This document shows, piece after piece, positions 27,850 through 45,502 of a stretch of DNA of 54,778 nt; within the stretch, counting starts at the first letter, position 1, and every line of letters starts with the position of its first letter. The stretch lies in assembly GCA_049967855.1 (NCBI GenBank), contig JBMFRX010000010.1, forward strand, positions 1 through 54,778. The letters run 5' to 3'. The notes beneath the pieces are model-generated. The model ran no database searches and was not told where the DNA came from. It worked only from the letters and a program-made list of their open reading frames with translations. The position numbers and the translations under genes are program-made. This DNA is from Caldisericaceae bacterium. Lineage in GTDB: Bacteria > Caldisericota > Caldisericia > Caldisericales > Caldisericaceae.

Positions 27850-29133
27850 ATGTATATTGAAGAAGCTCGAAACTTTGTAGACCAAAACGTTGAGATAAAA
27901 GGCTGGCTTTACAACAGCAGGTCGAGCGGCAAAATTATTTTTCTAATCGTGAGAGACGGAACTGGAATTATGCAGGCTGTTGTTTCGAAGAGTGAAGTTG
28001 GTGAAGAACTCTTTGAGATGGCTAAGAGCCTCACACAGGAATCTTCAATCATTGTCAAGGGAAAGGTTCACAGCGAGGAAAGAGCCCCTGGTGGTTTTGA
28101 ACTGAATGTGAGCGAGATTTCTGTTGTGCAATTAACCGACGAGTATCCAATCACTCCAAAAGAACACGGGGTTGGTTTTCTTATGGACAACAGGCACCTG
28201 TGGCTCAGGTCGCGGAGACAGTGGGCAATCCTCAGAATTAGAGCAGGCATTGAGAAAGCTCTGATGGATTTTTTCAACGCCAGAGGATTTACAATGGTTG
28301 ATGCACCAATTCTTACACCAAACGCGTGCGAAGGTTCTACAACTCTTTTTGAAACTGATTACTTCGGAGAAAAAGCATTTCTATCTCAGAGTGGTCAGCT
28401 TTATATGGAGGCAGCTGCTATGGCTCTGGGAAAAGTTTATTGTTTTGGCCCAACTTTTAGGGCAGAAAAGTCCAAAACGAGACGTCACCTTATGGAGTTC
28501 TGGATGCTTGAGCCTGAAGTTGCCTATATTACATTCGAGGAAAACCTCAAACTACAGGAAGATATGATAGTTTACGTTGTTGAGCACATCCTTACTAACT
28601 ACATTTCAGAGCTTGAAGTTATTGAGAGAGATATTAAGCCTCTCGAGAAAATTGAGGCACCATTCCCTCGCCTGCATTACAGAGATGCGATACAGATTCT
28701 CAGGAAGAAGGGCTATAACATAGAATTTGGCGACGACTTTGGCGGAGATGAAGAAACTGTTTTAGCGTCGGAGTTCGAAAGACCTGTATTTGTTCACCAT
28801 TTCCCTGCTTCAATAAAGGCTTTCTATATGCAGCCAGACCCTGAAGATCCAGAAACTGTTCTGGCAGCAGACTTATTGGCACCCGAAGGGTACGGTGAAA
28901 TTATCGGCGGCAGCCAGAGAATCCACGACTACGACTTACTGCTCAAGAAGATGAAAGAAAACAACCTCTCAATCGATGATTACAAGTGGTACCTTGATTT
29001 AAGGAAGTATGGCAGCGTACCTCACGGAGGATTCGGTATAGGACTCGAGCGAACGTTAGCCTGGATTGCAAAATTGCCACACGTTAGGGAGACAATTCCA
29101 TTCCCTCGCCTGTTTGAAAAAATATATCCATGA
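27850..29133 (+). CDS. asnS: asparagine--tRNA ligase
   Basis: AGGAGG RBS before ATG 27850. OB-fold (GWLYNSR, VRDGTG), [31 protein letters not shown]. Confidence 0.96.
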
Positions 29134-41462: not shown

Positions 41463-42698
41463 ATGCAAACTAATGATTTCTTTGAAGTTGCAATTATTGG
41501 TGGTGGAGCCGCAGGAATGATGGCTGCTCTCAGAGCAAGTAGCATTGGCAAGAAGAACGTTATTTTAGAGCGAAATGACAGAGTTGGAAAAAAACTTTTG
41601 CTTTCAGGTGATGGCAAGTGCAATATTACCAATGCCAATATCCAGAAAAAGAATTATCATTCATCAAATAACTGTTTTAATTTTGAGCCCCTTAATGAGT
41701 TCTCAAATGCTGACACTCTTGAATTTTTTGAGAAACTTGGGTTACTTTTGTTAACTGAAAGCGACGGAAGAATATTCCCACGAACATTGCAAGCATCGAC
41801 AGTTCTTGATGCTCTTAGGCTTCGCCTTGACGAACAAGGGGTAAAAATAATCAACAATTTTAAAGTAAGCAGCGTGCACAAAAGCAATGGCATTTTTAAA
41901 ATACTGAGTTCAGACGGCCTTACAGTTGCCTCAGAGAAAATCATCCTTGCAACAGGAGGAAAATCATACCAGAACACAGGGTCTGATGGTTCTGGGTATG
42001 CCATAGCGCAGAGCTTTGGCCACACAATAGTTGACCCAGTGCCAGCTCTTGTCCAGCTTAAACTCTTCTCACAACATTTGAAGACCCTTACAGGGGTGCG
42101 AACGGAGGCTTCGGTTAAAGTTGTGTATAACAATTCAATCATCTCTCAGGCGACGGGCGAGGTTCTTTTTACAAACTACGGAGCCTCAGGTCCTGCAATC
42201 TTGAACTCAAGCAACTCAATAGCGAGGCTTCTTAAAGATGACGCCGAAATCAATATGTACATAAACTTTCTGCCTGGCTATTCAACAGGTTTCATCAGAC
42301 AATTTCTTTTGGAGACCGCTGAACGTTATCCAGAAAGGACAATCGAACAATTGCTTCAGGGCCTGGTTCACAAGAGAATTGCTGCCGTAGTTACGAGAGA
42401 ACTGCAACTTCAAGACTCTACTAATGTAAGGGTCATTGAATCATATGCAGATTCAATACTAAATTCTCTCACTCAGATGAAATTTCGCGTAATGGGAACA
42501 CTCACGTTCGCTACTGCTCAGGTCACTTCAGGAGGCGTCAATACAAATGAAATTAATGAAACCACTCTTGAGTCAAAACTCGTGAAAGGTCTATACTTTG
42601 CAGGCGAAGTTATTGACGTAAATGGAGACTCAGGGGGCTACAACCTTCAGTGGGCGTGGAGCACTGGTTGGGTTGCAGGAAGTCTCAAATCAGAGTGA
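41463..42698 (+). CDS. HI0933/BaiN family flavoprotein
   Basis: IIGGGAAGMMAA, GKKLLLSGDGKCNITN, ATGGKSY, AQVTSGGV, GGYNLQWA. Confidence 0.95.
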   Translation: MQTNDFFEVAIIGGGAAGMMAALRASSIGKKNVILERNDRVGKKLLLSGDGKCNITNANIQKKNYHSSNNCFNFEPLNEFSNADTLEFFEKLGLLLLTESDGRIFPRTLQASTVLDALRLRLDEQGVKIINNFKVSSVHKSNGIFKILSSDGLTVASEKIILATGGKSYQNTGSDGSGYAIAQSFGHTIVDPVPALVQLKLFSQHLKTLTGVRTEASVKVVYNNSIISQATGEVLFTNYGASGPAILNSSNSIARLLKDDAEINMYINFLPGYSTGFIRQFLLETAERYPERTIEQLLQGLVHKRIAAVVTRELQLQDSTNVRVIESYADSILNSLTQMKFRVMGTLTFATAQVTSGGVNTNEINETTLESKLVKGLYFAGEVIDVNGDSGGYNLQWAWSTGWVAGSLKSE

Positions 42699-43598
42699 AA
42701 TTTTGCCAGGTAACTTCGCAAACAATCTTGCATCTTTAACCGAATCAAGACCACAAATAAATCTTGTGAGCCTTTCAATGCCTATTCCACAACCTGCAGA
42801 CCTTGGCAAACCACTTTTTGCCTTCTCAAGGTACCATTCAAAATCATCAAGGCTGTTTCCTTTCCTGCGCATTCTTTGAACGATTTTGTCATACTCGTTC
42901 TCCCTTTCGCCTCCTGAGATTCCCTCACCGAATCCGAACGGATAAATTAAATCCATATCAGCGAGAGTCTCTCCGTCATCATTCAGCTTGTCGTAGAACT
43001 CCCTTTCAAAAATAGGGATATCGATTAGCCAAAACGGATTAGTAGCATCCTTTGACAGAATACTCTCAAAATCGCCTCCAAATTTATCAATTGCGTTAGT
43101 GTATCTTACACGTTCAAATGGGACTGAAGGTATCGCAAACCTTGGATTGAGTTTTACGATTTCGTCTCCGAACTTCTGCCCAACTGTAGAAAAAGCTTGA
43201 ACAAACATCCTTTCAACTAGTGAGAGGATATCGTCACGTGAGGCATCTCTAACCTCAAGGTCTAACTGTGTAAACTCAATAAGATGCTTTCCCGAAGTAG
43301 CTCTATCGGCAGTTTCAAGCCTTACATTCGGAGAAAAAGAAAATATTCGCGGCGTCACTTCCAAAGAAAGTTGTTTGTGAAAAATCATCGACTTTGTAAG
43401 TGAATAAAACCCACCATAGTATTCGATCTTTGCATCAACAACGGAATGGTTCAAAGGATCAGTTATCGGAGAAATGATAACAGGCAAAATCTCTACAAAC
43501 CCTTCCCCTCTCAGGAATTGTCCCATCGAAAGCATCAAATCACTTTCGATTCTAAGCACAAGTTCTCTTACTCTCAAAGCCTCGTCAACAGTTTCCAT
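42690..43598 (-). CDS. asparagine synthetase A, archaeal type (AsnRS paralog lacking anticodon domain)
   Basis: Likely start ATG 43598 after AGGAGG (43605-43610). ILPVIISPITDPL, LTKSMIFHKQ, SPNVRLE..HLIEFTQLDLE, GEGISGGERE, SAGCGIGIERL. No N-terminal OB fold. Confidence 0.88.
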   Translation of the reverse strand: METVDEALRVRELVLRIESDLMLSMGQFLRGEGFVEILPVIISPITDPLNHSVVDAKIEYYGGFYSLTKSMIFHKQLSLEVTPRIFSFSPNVRLETADRATSGKHLIEFTQLDLEVRDASRDDILSLVERMFVQAFSTVGQKFGDEIVKLNPRFAIPSVPFERVRYTNAIDKFGGDFESILSKDATNPFWLIDIPIFEREFYDKLNDDGETLADMDLIYPFGFGEGISGGERENEYDKIVQRMRRKGNSLDDFEWYLEKAKSGLPRSAGCGIGIERLTRFICGLDSVKDARLFAKLPGKISL

Positions 43599-43620
43599 AA
43601 ATTGCCTCCTTAAAATTTTA

Positions 43621-43707
43621 AGGGCCGACGCATCTTGCATCGGCCCTGGGTTTATAAATTAATAATAATCAACCCGATCGACCGATGCCGATTGAGTTAT
43701 TATTATT
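43621..43707 (-). promoter_or_regulatory. attenuator-like RNA with mutually exclusive hairpins
   Basis: 1:2 stem at 43707-43661. 2:3 pairing GCATCGGTC/GGCCGATGC plus GGGTT/AACCC. 3:4 stem AGGGCCGATGCA-aga-TGCGTCGGCCCT. Confidence 0.75.
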
Positions 43708-43746
43708 TGAATTAGCACTAACTGCAAAAATAATTATTTCTTCCAT
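43669..43746 (-). CDS. putative Asn-rich leader peptide (25 aa)
   Basis: MEEIIIFAVSANSNNNNSIGIGRSG*, with GAGGT RBS 6 nt upstream. Lies between the promoter and asparagine synthetase. Confidence 0.8.
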   Translation of the reverse strand: MEEIIIFAVSANSNNNNSIGIGRSG

Positions 43747-43767
43747 AACCTTACCTCAATTTCGCCT

Positions 43768-43795
43768 ATTTTAGCAGAATTATTTTTTGAGTCAA
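43768..43795 (-). promoter_or_regulatory. promoter for leader peptide-asparagine synthetase
   Basis: TTGACT-N16-TAAAAT with extended -10 TGc. Confidence 0.7.
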
Positions 43796-43918
43796 TAGCA
43801 AATACTACTTCAAGGACGATAACCAATCCCTGTCACCCTCGGTTTGGCTGCACCAAGAAATTCTACGAATTCGCTTCCATTCAATAGCAAACTCCTTTCT
43901 GACGGTTGCATAATCTAT

Positions 43919-45502
43919 CTACTTTTCAATTGCTGCATCTGCAGCAAGCCTGCCTGTCATTATACATGTGGGTACACCCGTAGGACTGTAAGACCACTGG
44001 CCTGCCTTTAAAATATTAGGTATTGCTGTTTTTACAGAATTCCTAACAGATAGCATACTTGAAGAAACAGGCAGAGCTTCTTCAAAAGACCAACCCACTA
44101 TAGAGCCTTCTGAGCTACCGACATAGCGTTCTATCGTAAGAGGGGTTGCAGTAAAGCTGAACAGGAGCTTATCTTCAAGTCCATGATAGAGAGTTCTGGA
44201 TAATGTTTTTATCATATACTTTCCAAGTTGCTCTTTGAATTCCTCATACCATCCTGATTCGTTTACCTTTTTTACAAGATCATAATCGAACAGAAAACTA
44301 GCAATGAGCCCAGTCTTTCCAGGAGGTACAGTACTCGAGTCCCTCAATGCGGGAATTGATATTTCATAAGTTTCGAAGCTGCTCAACTTCTCAAGCCAGT
44401 TAAAAACATCTTTCTTACTAACCTTTTCCCAGTTGTTCAACAGATTTGTTAGTTCAGAACGCCGAATTTCCCCAAGGCCCTTCCTTGAAGGAGTGTAGAA
44501 GAAGTGACCTTGAGCAACCTCTGAAAACTTTTCAGGGCTTTCATCTACTCCAGCAAAGACAGTAAAAATTGAATCTGCCCCGAACCCTTTTAGAATTCTT
44601 TCTTTCTCTCCATCAAACTTCGTGAGGATTTTATCTCCAAGACCGTCATTCTTAATAATATAGTATAGAGTCTTGAGGTCTGCTGCCCATATGAGCTTTT
44701 TATACTCATAGGCGTTGCCATCGTCATCTTTAATTACATTTCTGTGAGGTATTACCTCTAAAACTCGCTTACTTGTATATATCTTTGCTCCCAATTCGAG
44801 AGCTTTATTCTCAACGGCTTCTGAAAGCCTTCCAACTCCACCCTTTGGATAAATGTAATCTGTATAAAGATAAAAGTAACTCATAGCAAAAAAAGCAGGG
44901 GTCCCTTTGAAAAAATGCTGACTTATTATATCTTTCAGGGAACTATTTTTAAGCTTTCTCTCAAGGAAGGGTTCAATCGGCTCGTTCATCTTTCCCATTG
45001 CATAAACTGTTTTAAGAAAACGGAAAAACCAGGGGCCATAGGGTAAGAACTTTTTTAAATCTCTCTTTAAGTCAAGAAAAAGTGGATTATCAATTCCGTA
45101 AAGCACCTCCATTTCTCTCATTATGCCTTTTATCAGCCTTGCAACCTCATTAACATCTTCTATGCTCTCTGGATACAGCTGCTTCAGAAGAGATTCGTAA
45201 TCTTTAAGGCTCTCTTTTGAGTTTATTTTAATAATTTTGTCTTCGACACCAACCGAAACAGGACTTTTTACAAATTCAAGTCTTATGCCAAGATCCCTTA
45301 GCATTGGAAGTATAATCCCTGCATTTTCAAGTGCCCGTACGCCGCCGTCAAAGACAAACCCGTCCCTTTCAATCGAATTGACCAAACCACCACACTTTTT
45401 ATTCTTCTCAAGAACAAGAACGTTTGCCCCTGACCTTGCAGCATATGCCGCAGCAGTAAGCCCAGCTATCCCTCCACCTACAACTATCACGTCCCAAACC
45501 AT
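43919..45502 (-). CDS. phytoene desaturase-family FAD-dependent oxidoreductase
   Basis: VVGGGIAGL, LEKNKKCGG, GFVFDGG, YPKGG, ATPLTIERY, AGQW...GVP. Confidence 0.85.
   Translation of the reverse strand: MVWDVIVVGGGIAGLTAAAYAARSGANVLVLEKNKKCGGLVNSIERDGFVFDGGVRALENAGIILPMLRDLGIRLEFVKSPVSVGVEDKIIKINSKESLKDYESLLKQLYPESIEDVNEVARLIKGIMREMEVLYGIDNPLFLDLKRDLKKFLPYGPWFFRFLKTVYAMGKMNEPIEPFLERKLKNSSLKDIISQHFFKGTPAFFAMSYFYLYTDYIYPKGGVGRLSEAVENKALELGAKIYTSKRVLEVIPHRNVIKDDDGNAYEYKKLIWAADLKTLYYIIKNDGLGDKILTKFDGEKERILKGFGADSIFTVFAGVDESPEKFSEVAQGHFFYTPSRKGLGEIRRSELTNLLNNWEKVSKKDVFNWLEKLSSFETYEISIPALRDSSTVPPGKTGLIASFLFDYDLVKKVNESGWYEEFKEQLGKYMIKTLSRTLYHGLEDKLLFSFTATPLTIERYVGSSEGSIVGWSFEEALPVSSSMLSVRNSVKTAIPNILKAGQWSYSPTGVPTCIMTGRLAADAAIEK

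Follow-up and report, generated by a model that had tools for sequence, protein, structure and literature searches.

We describe a predicted ribosome-mediated transcription attenuator that would sense charged tRNA-Asn ahead of asnA, the gene for an archaeal-type asparagine synthetase A, in a Caldisericaceae bacterium. The window, by which we mean the whole stretch of DNA analysed, comprises 54,778 nt of contig JBMFRX010000010.1 (assembly GCA_049967855.1). We give this reading a probability of roughly 85%. The anatomy of the leader, its conservation, the compensatory base changes in its helices and the computed geometry of its folds were established here, and from these we infer leader translation, ribosome stalling, pausing, termination and Asn dependence.

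Organization of the asnA leader

The leader and asnA lie on the minus strand, and asnS is located elsewhere in the window. The elements are as follows, with the pairing segments of the leader numbered 1 to 4.

43768..43795, minus strand: sigma70-type promoter-like site (TTGACT, 16 nt, TG-TAAAAT)
43753..43757, minus strand: SD-like GAGGT of the leader ORF, 6 nt ahead of the leader ATG
43669..43746, minus strand: leader ORF, 25 codons
43696..43713, minus strand: putative regulatory Asn codons 12 and 14-17 (five Asn)
43661..43707, minus strand: 1:2 stem (putative protector or pause hairpin), with a conserved inner hairpin at 43692-43677
43637..43688, minus strand: predicted 2:3 antiterminator, 43688-43680 with 43645-43637 and 43675-43671 with 43652-43648
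43621..43647, minus strand: predicted 3:4 terminator hairpin, G-C core 43646-43622
43612..43621, minus strand: T tail interrupted by A, with 4 T among its first 8 nt
43605..43610, minus strand: SD of asnA, AGGAGG
42690..43598, minus strand: archaeal-type asparagine synthetase A (AsnRS catalytic-core paralogue), 302 aa, assigned by NF005054 and solved structures
27850..29133, plus strand: asnS, asparaginyl-tRNA synthetase, unlinked to asnA (NF003037, 575 bits against a cut-off of 414)

An initial annotation of this DNA had placed the promoter, the GAGGT, the leader ORF, the helices, the AGGAGG and the ATG on the minus strand, and all of them were recovered at the same coordinates. In the promoter-like site at 43795-43768, 10 of 12 bases agree with the consensus, the spacer is 16 nt long and a TG stands ahead of the -10 box; it is the best of eight such sites in 42500-44100 (shuffles had a mean of 2.8). 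A TTGAC word also stands 5' of the leader ORF in the listed orthologues. The 25-codon ORF, which had been described as having five Asn among codons 12-17, has them at codons 12 and 14-17. Its stop codon lies nine codons past the last Asn, a distance shared by 19 of the 20 listed leaders, the window's included. The long 1:2 stem is present as well (-16.8 kcal/mol when folded alone), with three single-base bulges that the initial annotation did not mention.

An in-frame ATG at 43640, within the terminator, extends the synthetase ORF to 316 aa, and the choice of this start in automatic annotation could mask the terminator hairpin. The upstream gene encodes an FAD oxidoreductase and ends at 43919; the terminator scan calls none between 43919 and 43796. 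Transcripts of the FAD oxidoreductase gene may read into the asnA attenuator. A 33-codon ORF at 43911-43810 is without a homologue in the genome and was dropped.

A census of intergenic ORFs of 10-45 codons, based on crude gene calls for the whole genome, gave 5392 ORFs (582 with an SD-like word), and the only one with at least five Asn in seven codons is the asnA leader. T-tailed hairpins were found at 37 places near 1158 crude gene starts; only that of asnA has an upstream competitor that beats 100 of 100 shuffles. No curated Rfam family matched the window at the gathering score, and the four matches at a relaxed E-value (0.24-8.3) were at chance level. The T-box model RF00230 had no match in the window or the genome.

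The product of the downstream gene scores 375 bits against NF005054 (cut-off 309). Its closest solved structures are 1nnh and 3p8t, the latter titled 'Archaeal asparagine synthetase A'. By these matches the enzyme is assigned to the archaeal-type AsnA, an AsnRS catalytic core without the anticodon-binding domain. No asnB was over the cut-off in the genome, so AsnA is the only Asn synthetase found there.

Conservation of the leader and compensatory base changes

The leader is kept in all six of the family orthologues that are 61-66% identical, with an ORF of 24-26 codons, 5-8 Asn and the same helices. Eleven full-length copies at 48-52% identity and one partial copy have no leader within 450 nt. 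Several of the leaderless asnA genes end an amino-acid ABC operon, and the promoter region of that operon is likewise without a leader. The best 80 GTDB and best 80 metagenome matches added Mesoaciditogales asnA genes with a homologous leader; the Thermoplasmata copies among these matches have no such leader. With a covariance model built from 28 sequences, the leader was detected in 15 of the 16 Mesoaciditogales genomes; in the 16th the contig begins inside the leader.

In a Thermotogota sample of 151 genomes, 61 hold 62 asnA copies, and the upstream DNA of all 62 was read. An Asn-run leader stands before 60 of them: 51 have at least four Asn in eight codons (one without a start, at a contig end), and nine have 2-3 Asn, often beside Asp. 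One contig starts inside the leader, and G127 is the single copy with no Asn leader before asnA. The last Asn is 41-62 nt from the terminator start in the 45 leaders scored by script. The leader peptides diverge outside the run, and both AAT (75) and AAC (48) are used in frame. Two exact patterns were searched for in the GTDB collection, and every one of their 13 and 18 matches falls at an asnA or a glnA locus.

Some leaders deviate in composition or start. Leaders with 2-4 Asn and an Asp codon within the run or next to it (L045, L046, L134, L367, L371, L374, L379, L381 and L392) may be weaker or Asp/Asn-sensing variants. The g8 leaders L003-L007 have their ATG only about 10 nt past the -10 box and no SD, and may be translated nearly leaderless.

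Among 27 distinct aligned sequences, 96.8% of the cells of the antiterminator are paired and two of its eight pairs have changed on both sides. The corresponding values for the inner hairpin plus terminator are 95.4% and four of 14 pairs, and the 1:2 hairpin is conserved with 90% of cells paired. The covariation scores of both helix sets were reached by none of 500 shuffles and slid controls were 8-55% paired, the aligned sequences being related, so that kinship inflates the covariation figures and the changes are not independent events. The trp/his-type architecture claimed in the initial annotation, an Asn-codon ORF with mutually exclusive 2:3 and 3:4 helices, was thus found to be conserved, with compensatory changes in both helices.

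A scan of the phylum with the covariance model gave 30 weaker matches, of which 23 lie before asnA, two before a HisRS-family gene and one before a PEPCK-like gene. The matches at G105:C178 and G133 look like plain terminators and were rejected, and there is no asnA at the loci of G187 and G106. G045, one of the 27-35-bit matches in other Caldisericota families, was rejected as an apparent plain terminator too.

Folding of the leader RNA

In the proposed mechanism RNA polymerase would transcribe the leader and a ribosome would initiate on the short ORF. With Asn in good supply, the ribosome would pass the Asn run and within 2-3 codons cover segment 2; the 3:4 hairpin would then form and transcription would halt ahead of asnA. 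When Asn is scarce, the ribosome would stall on the Asn codons, 2:3 would pair before segment 4 is made, and the polymerase would read through into asnA.

All folding was done at 37°C. At its MFE (-49.8 kcal/mol, z -4.44), the RNA of 43765-43596 takes up precisely the 1:2 and 3:4 helices. If it ends ahead of segment 4, the 2:3 helix forms instead (-23.2 kcal/mol, z -4.56). In each case none of 200 shuffles did as well. In the window, pairing of the terminator 5' arm with the upstream RNA yields a duplex of -17.6 kcal/mol; shuffles averaged -7.3, and none of 200 came as low. When the same comparison was made across leaders, at most 10 of 200 shuffles reached the real value in 17 of 21. Only one of 68 control hairpins was at the 5% level, and none of them reached -13 kcal/mol.

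The ribosome was represented by a mask on the RNA up to 9 nt beyond the A-site codon, and the transcript was folded as it is before segment 4 emerges. Under this mask, the antiterminator probability in the window is 0.78 with the ribosome on the Asn run and 0.04 with the ribosome at the stop codon. Of 21 leaders, 20 start at 0.74-1.0 with the ribosome on the run, and no more than three codons beyond the last Asn they have dropped to about 0.1 or below; some rebound later via weak pairings, and at the stop codon the values are 0.04-0.50. From run to stop it drops by more than 0.3 in 40 of 45 further leaders. Taken alone the measure is unspecific: it exceeds 0.5 in 24 of 64 control hairpins (arms clipped), and the window value is reached by 21 of 200 shuffles.

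Equilibrium folding of the full-length RNA under the ribosome mask gave no switch. The terminator probability of the window RNA is 0.97 at every ribosome position, and among the 21 leaders it is below 0.75 in only three, at single positions each. As the terminator wins at equilibrium whatever the ribosome position, the switch must be kinetic (co-transcriptional), as in the attenuation model in the excerpt of PMC1183508 used here. Folding with the ribosome footprint masked, which the initial annotation proposed, shows a switch on RNA ending before segment 4 and none on full-length RNA at equilibrium. The model put forward there, in which a stalled ribosome would free segment 2, gains support from conservation, covariation and the masked folds, all of them computed. 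The ribosome-free window RNA favours 2:3 at the stage before segment 4 (0.82), and in this it differs from the ribosome-free default of classical attenuators.

Terminator tail and output of the proposed switch

The U-tract had been called poor, and rightly so: in the window, the 8 nt that follow the last G-C pair contain 4 T, and the terminator scan calls none there. Tails of 4 T in 8 also occur in G001 and in six Mesoaciditogales leaders. In the five g8 leaders the count rises to 5-7 T, and the tails of all 45 further Thermotogota asnA leaders scored by script have at least 5 T in 8 (the script demanded at least 3). By these tails, the weak U-tract appears specific to the window's lineage, and most Thermotogota leaders appear to have true U-tracts. 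Among the strong post-gene hairpins of the window genome, 27 of 63 have at most 4 T; the window tail is weak, yet within the range of the genome's own post-gene hairpins. The genome also has rho. The weak tail probably makes termination in the window genome partial or factor-assisted.

The alternative that survives best keeps the same Asn sensor and changes only the output. The 3:4 hairpin would be a pause or a NusA- or Rho-assisted stop, or the switch would be partly decayed and leaky. This is a variant of the attenuator explanation and has no different sensor. The tails of 4 T in 8, the presence of Rho and the preference of naked RNA for 2:3 before segment 4 is made speak for it. Against it, every helix is preserved and strong, many genes of this genome are followed by A-interrupted tails, and the retention of the same tail type in several lineages argues against decay. 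We regard this output as less likely than not.

Probable signal read by the leader

The genome has one bacterial-type aspS, gatCAB and one tRNA-Asn(GTT) beside asnS, and no glnS over the cut-off; the missing glnS would account for GatCAB. The asnS gene would supply the charged tRNA that the leader is predicted to read. The initial annotation held that asnS makes tRNA-Asn charging report free Asn. The asnS gene is indeed over the cut-off, and with GatCAB present we consider such reporting only likely.

The signal would be amide nitrogen (Gln) instead of free Asn if tRNA-Asn were partly charged via Asp-tRNA and GatCAB. Beside gatCAB itself, this would suit the leader copies ahead of glnA (see below) and the Asp codons within the run in some leaders. 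However, the AspRS here has Leu at the signature position where a His is, as we take it, the mark of the non-discriminating enzymes. The asnS gene is over the cut-off in five of five other genomes tested as well. According to the excerpts used here, a lone bacterial AspRS can be non-discriminating beside AsnRS (PMC4206432), whereas genomes with AsnA use AsnRS (PMC2330236). A Gln signal is, on balance, improbable.

Still less credible is translational attenuation of the erm/cat type, in which stalling would free the SD of asnA. The end of the hairpin is only 11 nt 5' of the SD and the U-tract is weak, as such control might have it, but enforcing the antiterminator brings no gain in SD accessibility for the window (0.46, compared with 0.42). 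The accessibility falls by more than 0.1 in 16 of the 21 leaders, because the freed segment 4 pairs with the SD. Covering the SD on stalling would be the wrong direction for a biosynthetic gene. Under transcription attenuation the freed segment 4 would also tend to cover the SD, yet the SD would be exposed again once the RNA relaxes to 3:4 after read-through.

A chance AAT repeat in AT-rich intergenic DNA beside the terminator of the upstream operon, for which one could cite the 16 runs of four AAY codons in the genome and the lack of any other called terminator between 43919 and the promoter, is refuted by conservation and has a negligible probability: the ORF, frame, spacing and helices persist though the upstream genes differ among orthologues, and the exact pattern matches are confined to asnA and glnA.

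History of the gene

The leader-bearing Caldisericota AsnA group with those of Mesoaciditogales (SH-aLRT 99) and separately from the leaderless ones of Caldisericota; a single Caldisericota AsnA clade is rejected (p-AU 2.6e-98, 56 selected rows). The trees are quick and unrooted, and were made with the 56 selected rows and also with 92 rows (six duplicates and partial rows left out). As the leader-bearing Caldisericota AsnA go with those of Mesoaciditogales, the gene and its leader appear to have crossed phyla together. The wide spread of the leader in Thermotogota suggests, on unrooted trees, that Thermotogota was the donor.

Leader copies before other genes

Six Mesoaciditogales genomes have a second copy of the leader (77-89 bits) with 5-8 Asn directly 5' of a glutamine synthetase gene. 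The loci are listed below.

G070:C11 (L260): Asn leader before type I glutamine synthetase
G068:C45 (L261): Asn leader before type I glutamine synthetase
G071:C37 (L262): Asn leader before type I glutamine synthetase
G072:C31 (L263): Asn leader before type I glutamine synthetase
G061:C1:1948234-1948326 (L264): Asn leader before type I glutamine synthetase
G067:C41 (L265): Asn leader before type I glutamine synthetase

Three of these glutamine synthetases were scored with TIGR00653 and had 543-557 bits (cut-off 429). Among other Mesoaciditogales, one shows only the 3' half of the leader, at a contig start ahead of glnA. In eight others glnA is behind another gene and has no leader, and one had no close glnA match. 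Both glnA genes of the window genome are without an Asn leader. In the five g8 genomes (L003-L007) glnA follows asnA by about 40-60 nt on the same strand in all five cases. A simple operon of leader, asnA and glnA is weakened there by promoter-like boxes between the two genes, so that co-control would be at most partial.

In G110 an Asn leader (L333, L387:792-2558, G110:C1) lies about 200 nt 5' of a gene for a 589-aa PEPCK-like protein. The nearest Atlas clusters of this protein are named phosphoenolpyruvate carboxykinase, and its Pfam PEPCK_ATP match is below the cut-off.

Similar scaffolds were found with other codon runs. A His-run leader precedes a HisRS-family (hisZ-like) gene at L382 (G101:C106) and L386 (G100:C95). 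A second His-rich ORF follows, suggesting tandem attenuators. In G000, G008, G015 and G020 a Lys/His/Arg-run leader with a terminator stands before a polar amino-acid ABC transporter, at these loci:

G000:C4:37790-37960 (L267, L269): Lys/His/Arg leader
L270-L272: Lys/His/Arg leaders

The best family for the transporter behind this leader is lysine/arginine/ornithine binding protein, below the cut-off. The orthologous ABC operons in genera g3, g5 and g6 have no Lys/His/Arg leader and end in a leaderless asnA. The His and Lys/His/Arg scaffolds, with scores of only 27-36 bits, may be homologous to the Asn leader. A weak model match at L268 (G069:C10:1711-1839) has a short Arg/His ORF and a terminator before a gene for a family-5 solute-binding protein.

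Records with Aminicenantes and Clostridia in their titles have a differently built Asn leader before genes of this enzyme family (L071, L091, L104, L107, L152, L179, L184, L185, L188 and L206). In this type a G/C hairpin holds the stop codon that comes after the Asn run, and there is no U-tract. In the folds of eight that were tested the SD is paired, with no clear switch. Short upstream ORFs containing Gln/Asn/Pro recur before Bipolaricaulota-like copies of the enzyme (L068, L078, L082, L095, L101, L147-L149, L153, L155, L165, L186, L191 and L192).

Comparison with known systems and significance

Like trpL and hisL of E. coli, the asnA leader has an ORF with codons for the pathway product and mutually exclusive helices. 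Further classical leader-peptide attenuators are pheL, thrL and leuL. Unlike these, the asnA leader reads Asn, precedes an archaeal-type AsnA, occurs in Caldisericota and Thermotogota, has no Rfam match and, in the window, has a weak U-tract. The part of PMC1183508 used here describes regions I-IV with exclusive II:III and III:IV helices and a stop codon in region II.

Leader-peptide control is also found outside enterobacteria. In the excerpts used here, a His-codon leader is described before hisS paralogues and hisZ in bacilli (PMC2965389), and a Cys-codon uORF before cysS (PMC8632094). The product of hisZ is, like AsnA, an aminoacyl-tRNA synthetase paralogue in biosynthesis. These leaders differ from that of asnA in the amino acid read, and the likeness drawn here is one of arrangement; our covariance model does match the His-run leaders before the HisRS-family gene in the two Thermotogota. 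Firmicutes have Asn-specific T-box elements, as stated in an excerpt of PMC2494555. Such an element also reads the charging of tRNA-Asn through a terminator/antiterminator switch, but it lacks a leader ORF and detects uncharged tRNA by direct binding, and RF00230 is unmatched in the window genome.

The initial annotation knew of no characterised Asn attenuator. None was found in Rfam or in the literature searched, a search outside which lies one relevant comparative paper, Lopatovskaya et al. 2010, which reportedly predicts attenuators in many phyla including Thermotogae and could list Asn. An Asn attenuator is absent from the main text, in the parts covered, of PMC4833913, PMC2965389, PMC8632094, PMC11109978 and PMC6429828, the supplements of which could list one.

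The mechanism is a textbook one and the Asn specificity is absent from Rfam. If our reading is true, asparagine joins the amino acids read by leader-peptide attenuators. The asnA leader is near-universal on one enzyme family across the Thermotogota sample, yet without an Rfam entry. An element of about 100 nt, it could act as an Asn sensor or guide the annotation of genes behind similar leaders. What appears new here is that the leader has been duplicated: six Mesoaciditogales genomes have a copy ahead of glutamine synthetase, and one further copy precedes a PEPCK-like gene.

More broadly, charged tRNA-Asn might serve as a general amide-nitrogen gauge in Thermotogota and Caldisericota. A portable attenuator family would then control asnA, glutamine synthetase and one PEPCK-like gene, be re-tuned to His or Lys/His/Arg by a swap of the codon run, and move between phyla with its gene. 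We put this forward tentatively, at slightly less than even odds. The most interesting aspect is that the same Asn leader is reused for glutamine synthetase. These copies suggest a protein-free coupling of ammonia assimilation to translation, one that would use a codon other than that of the enzyme's product.
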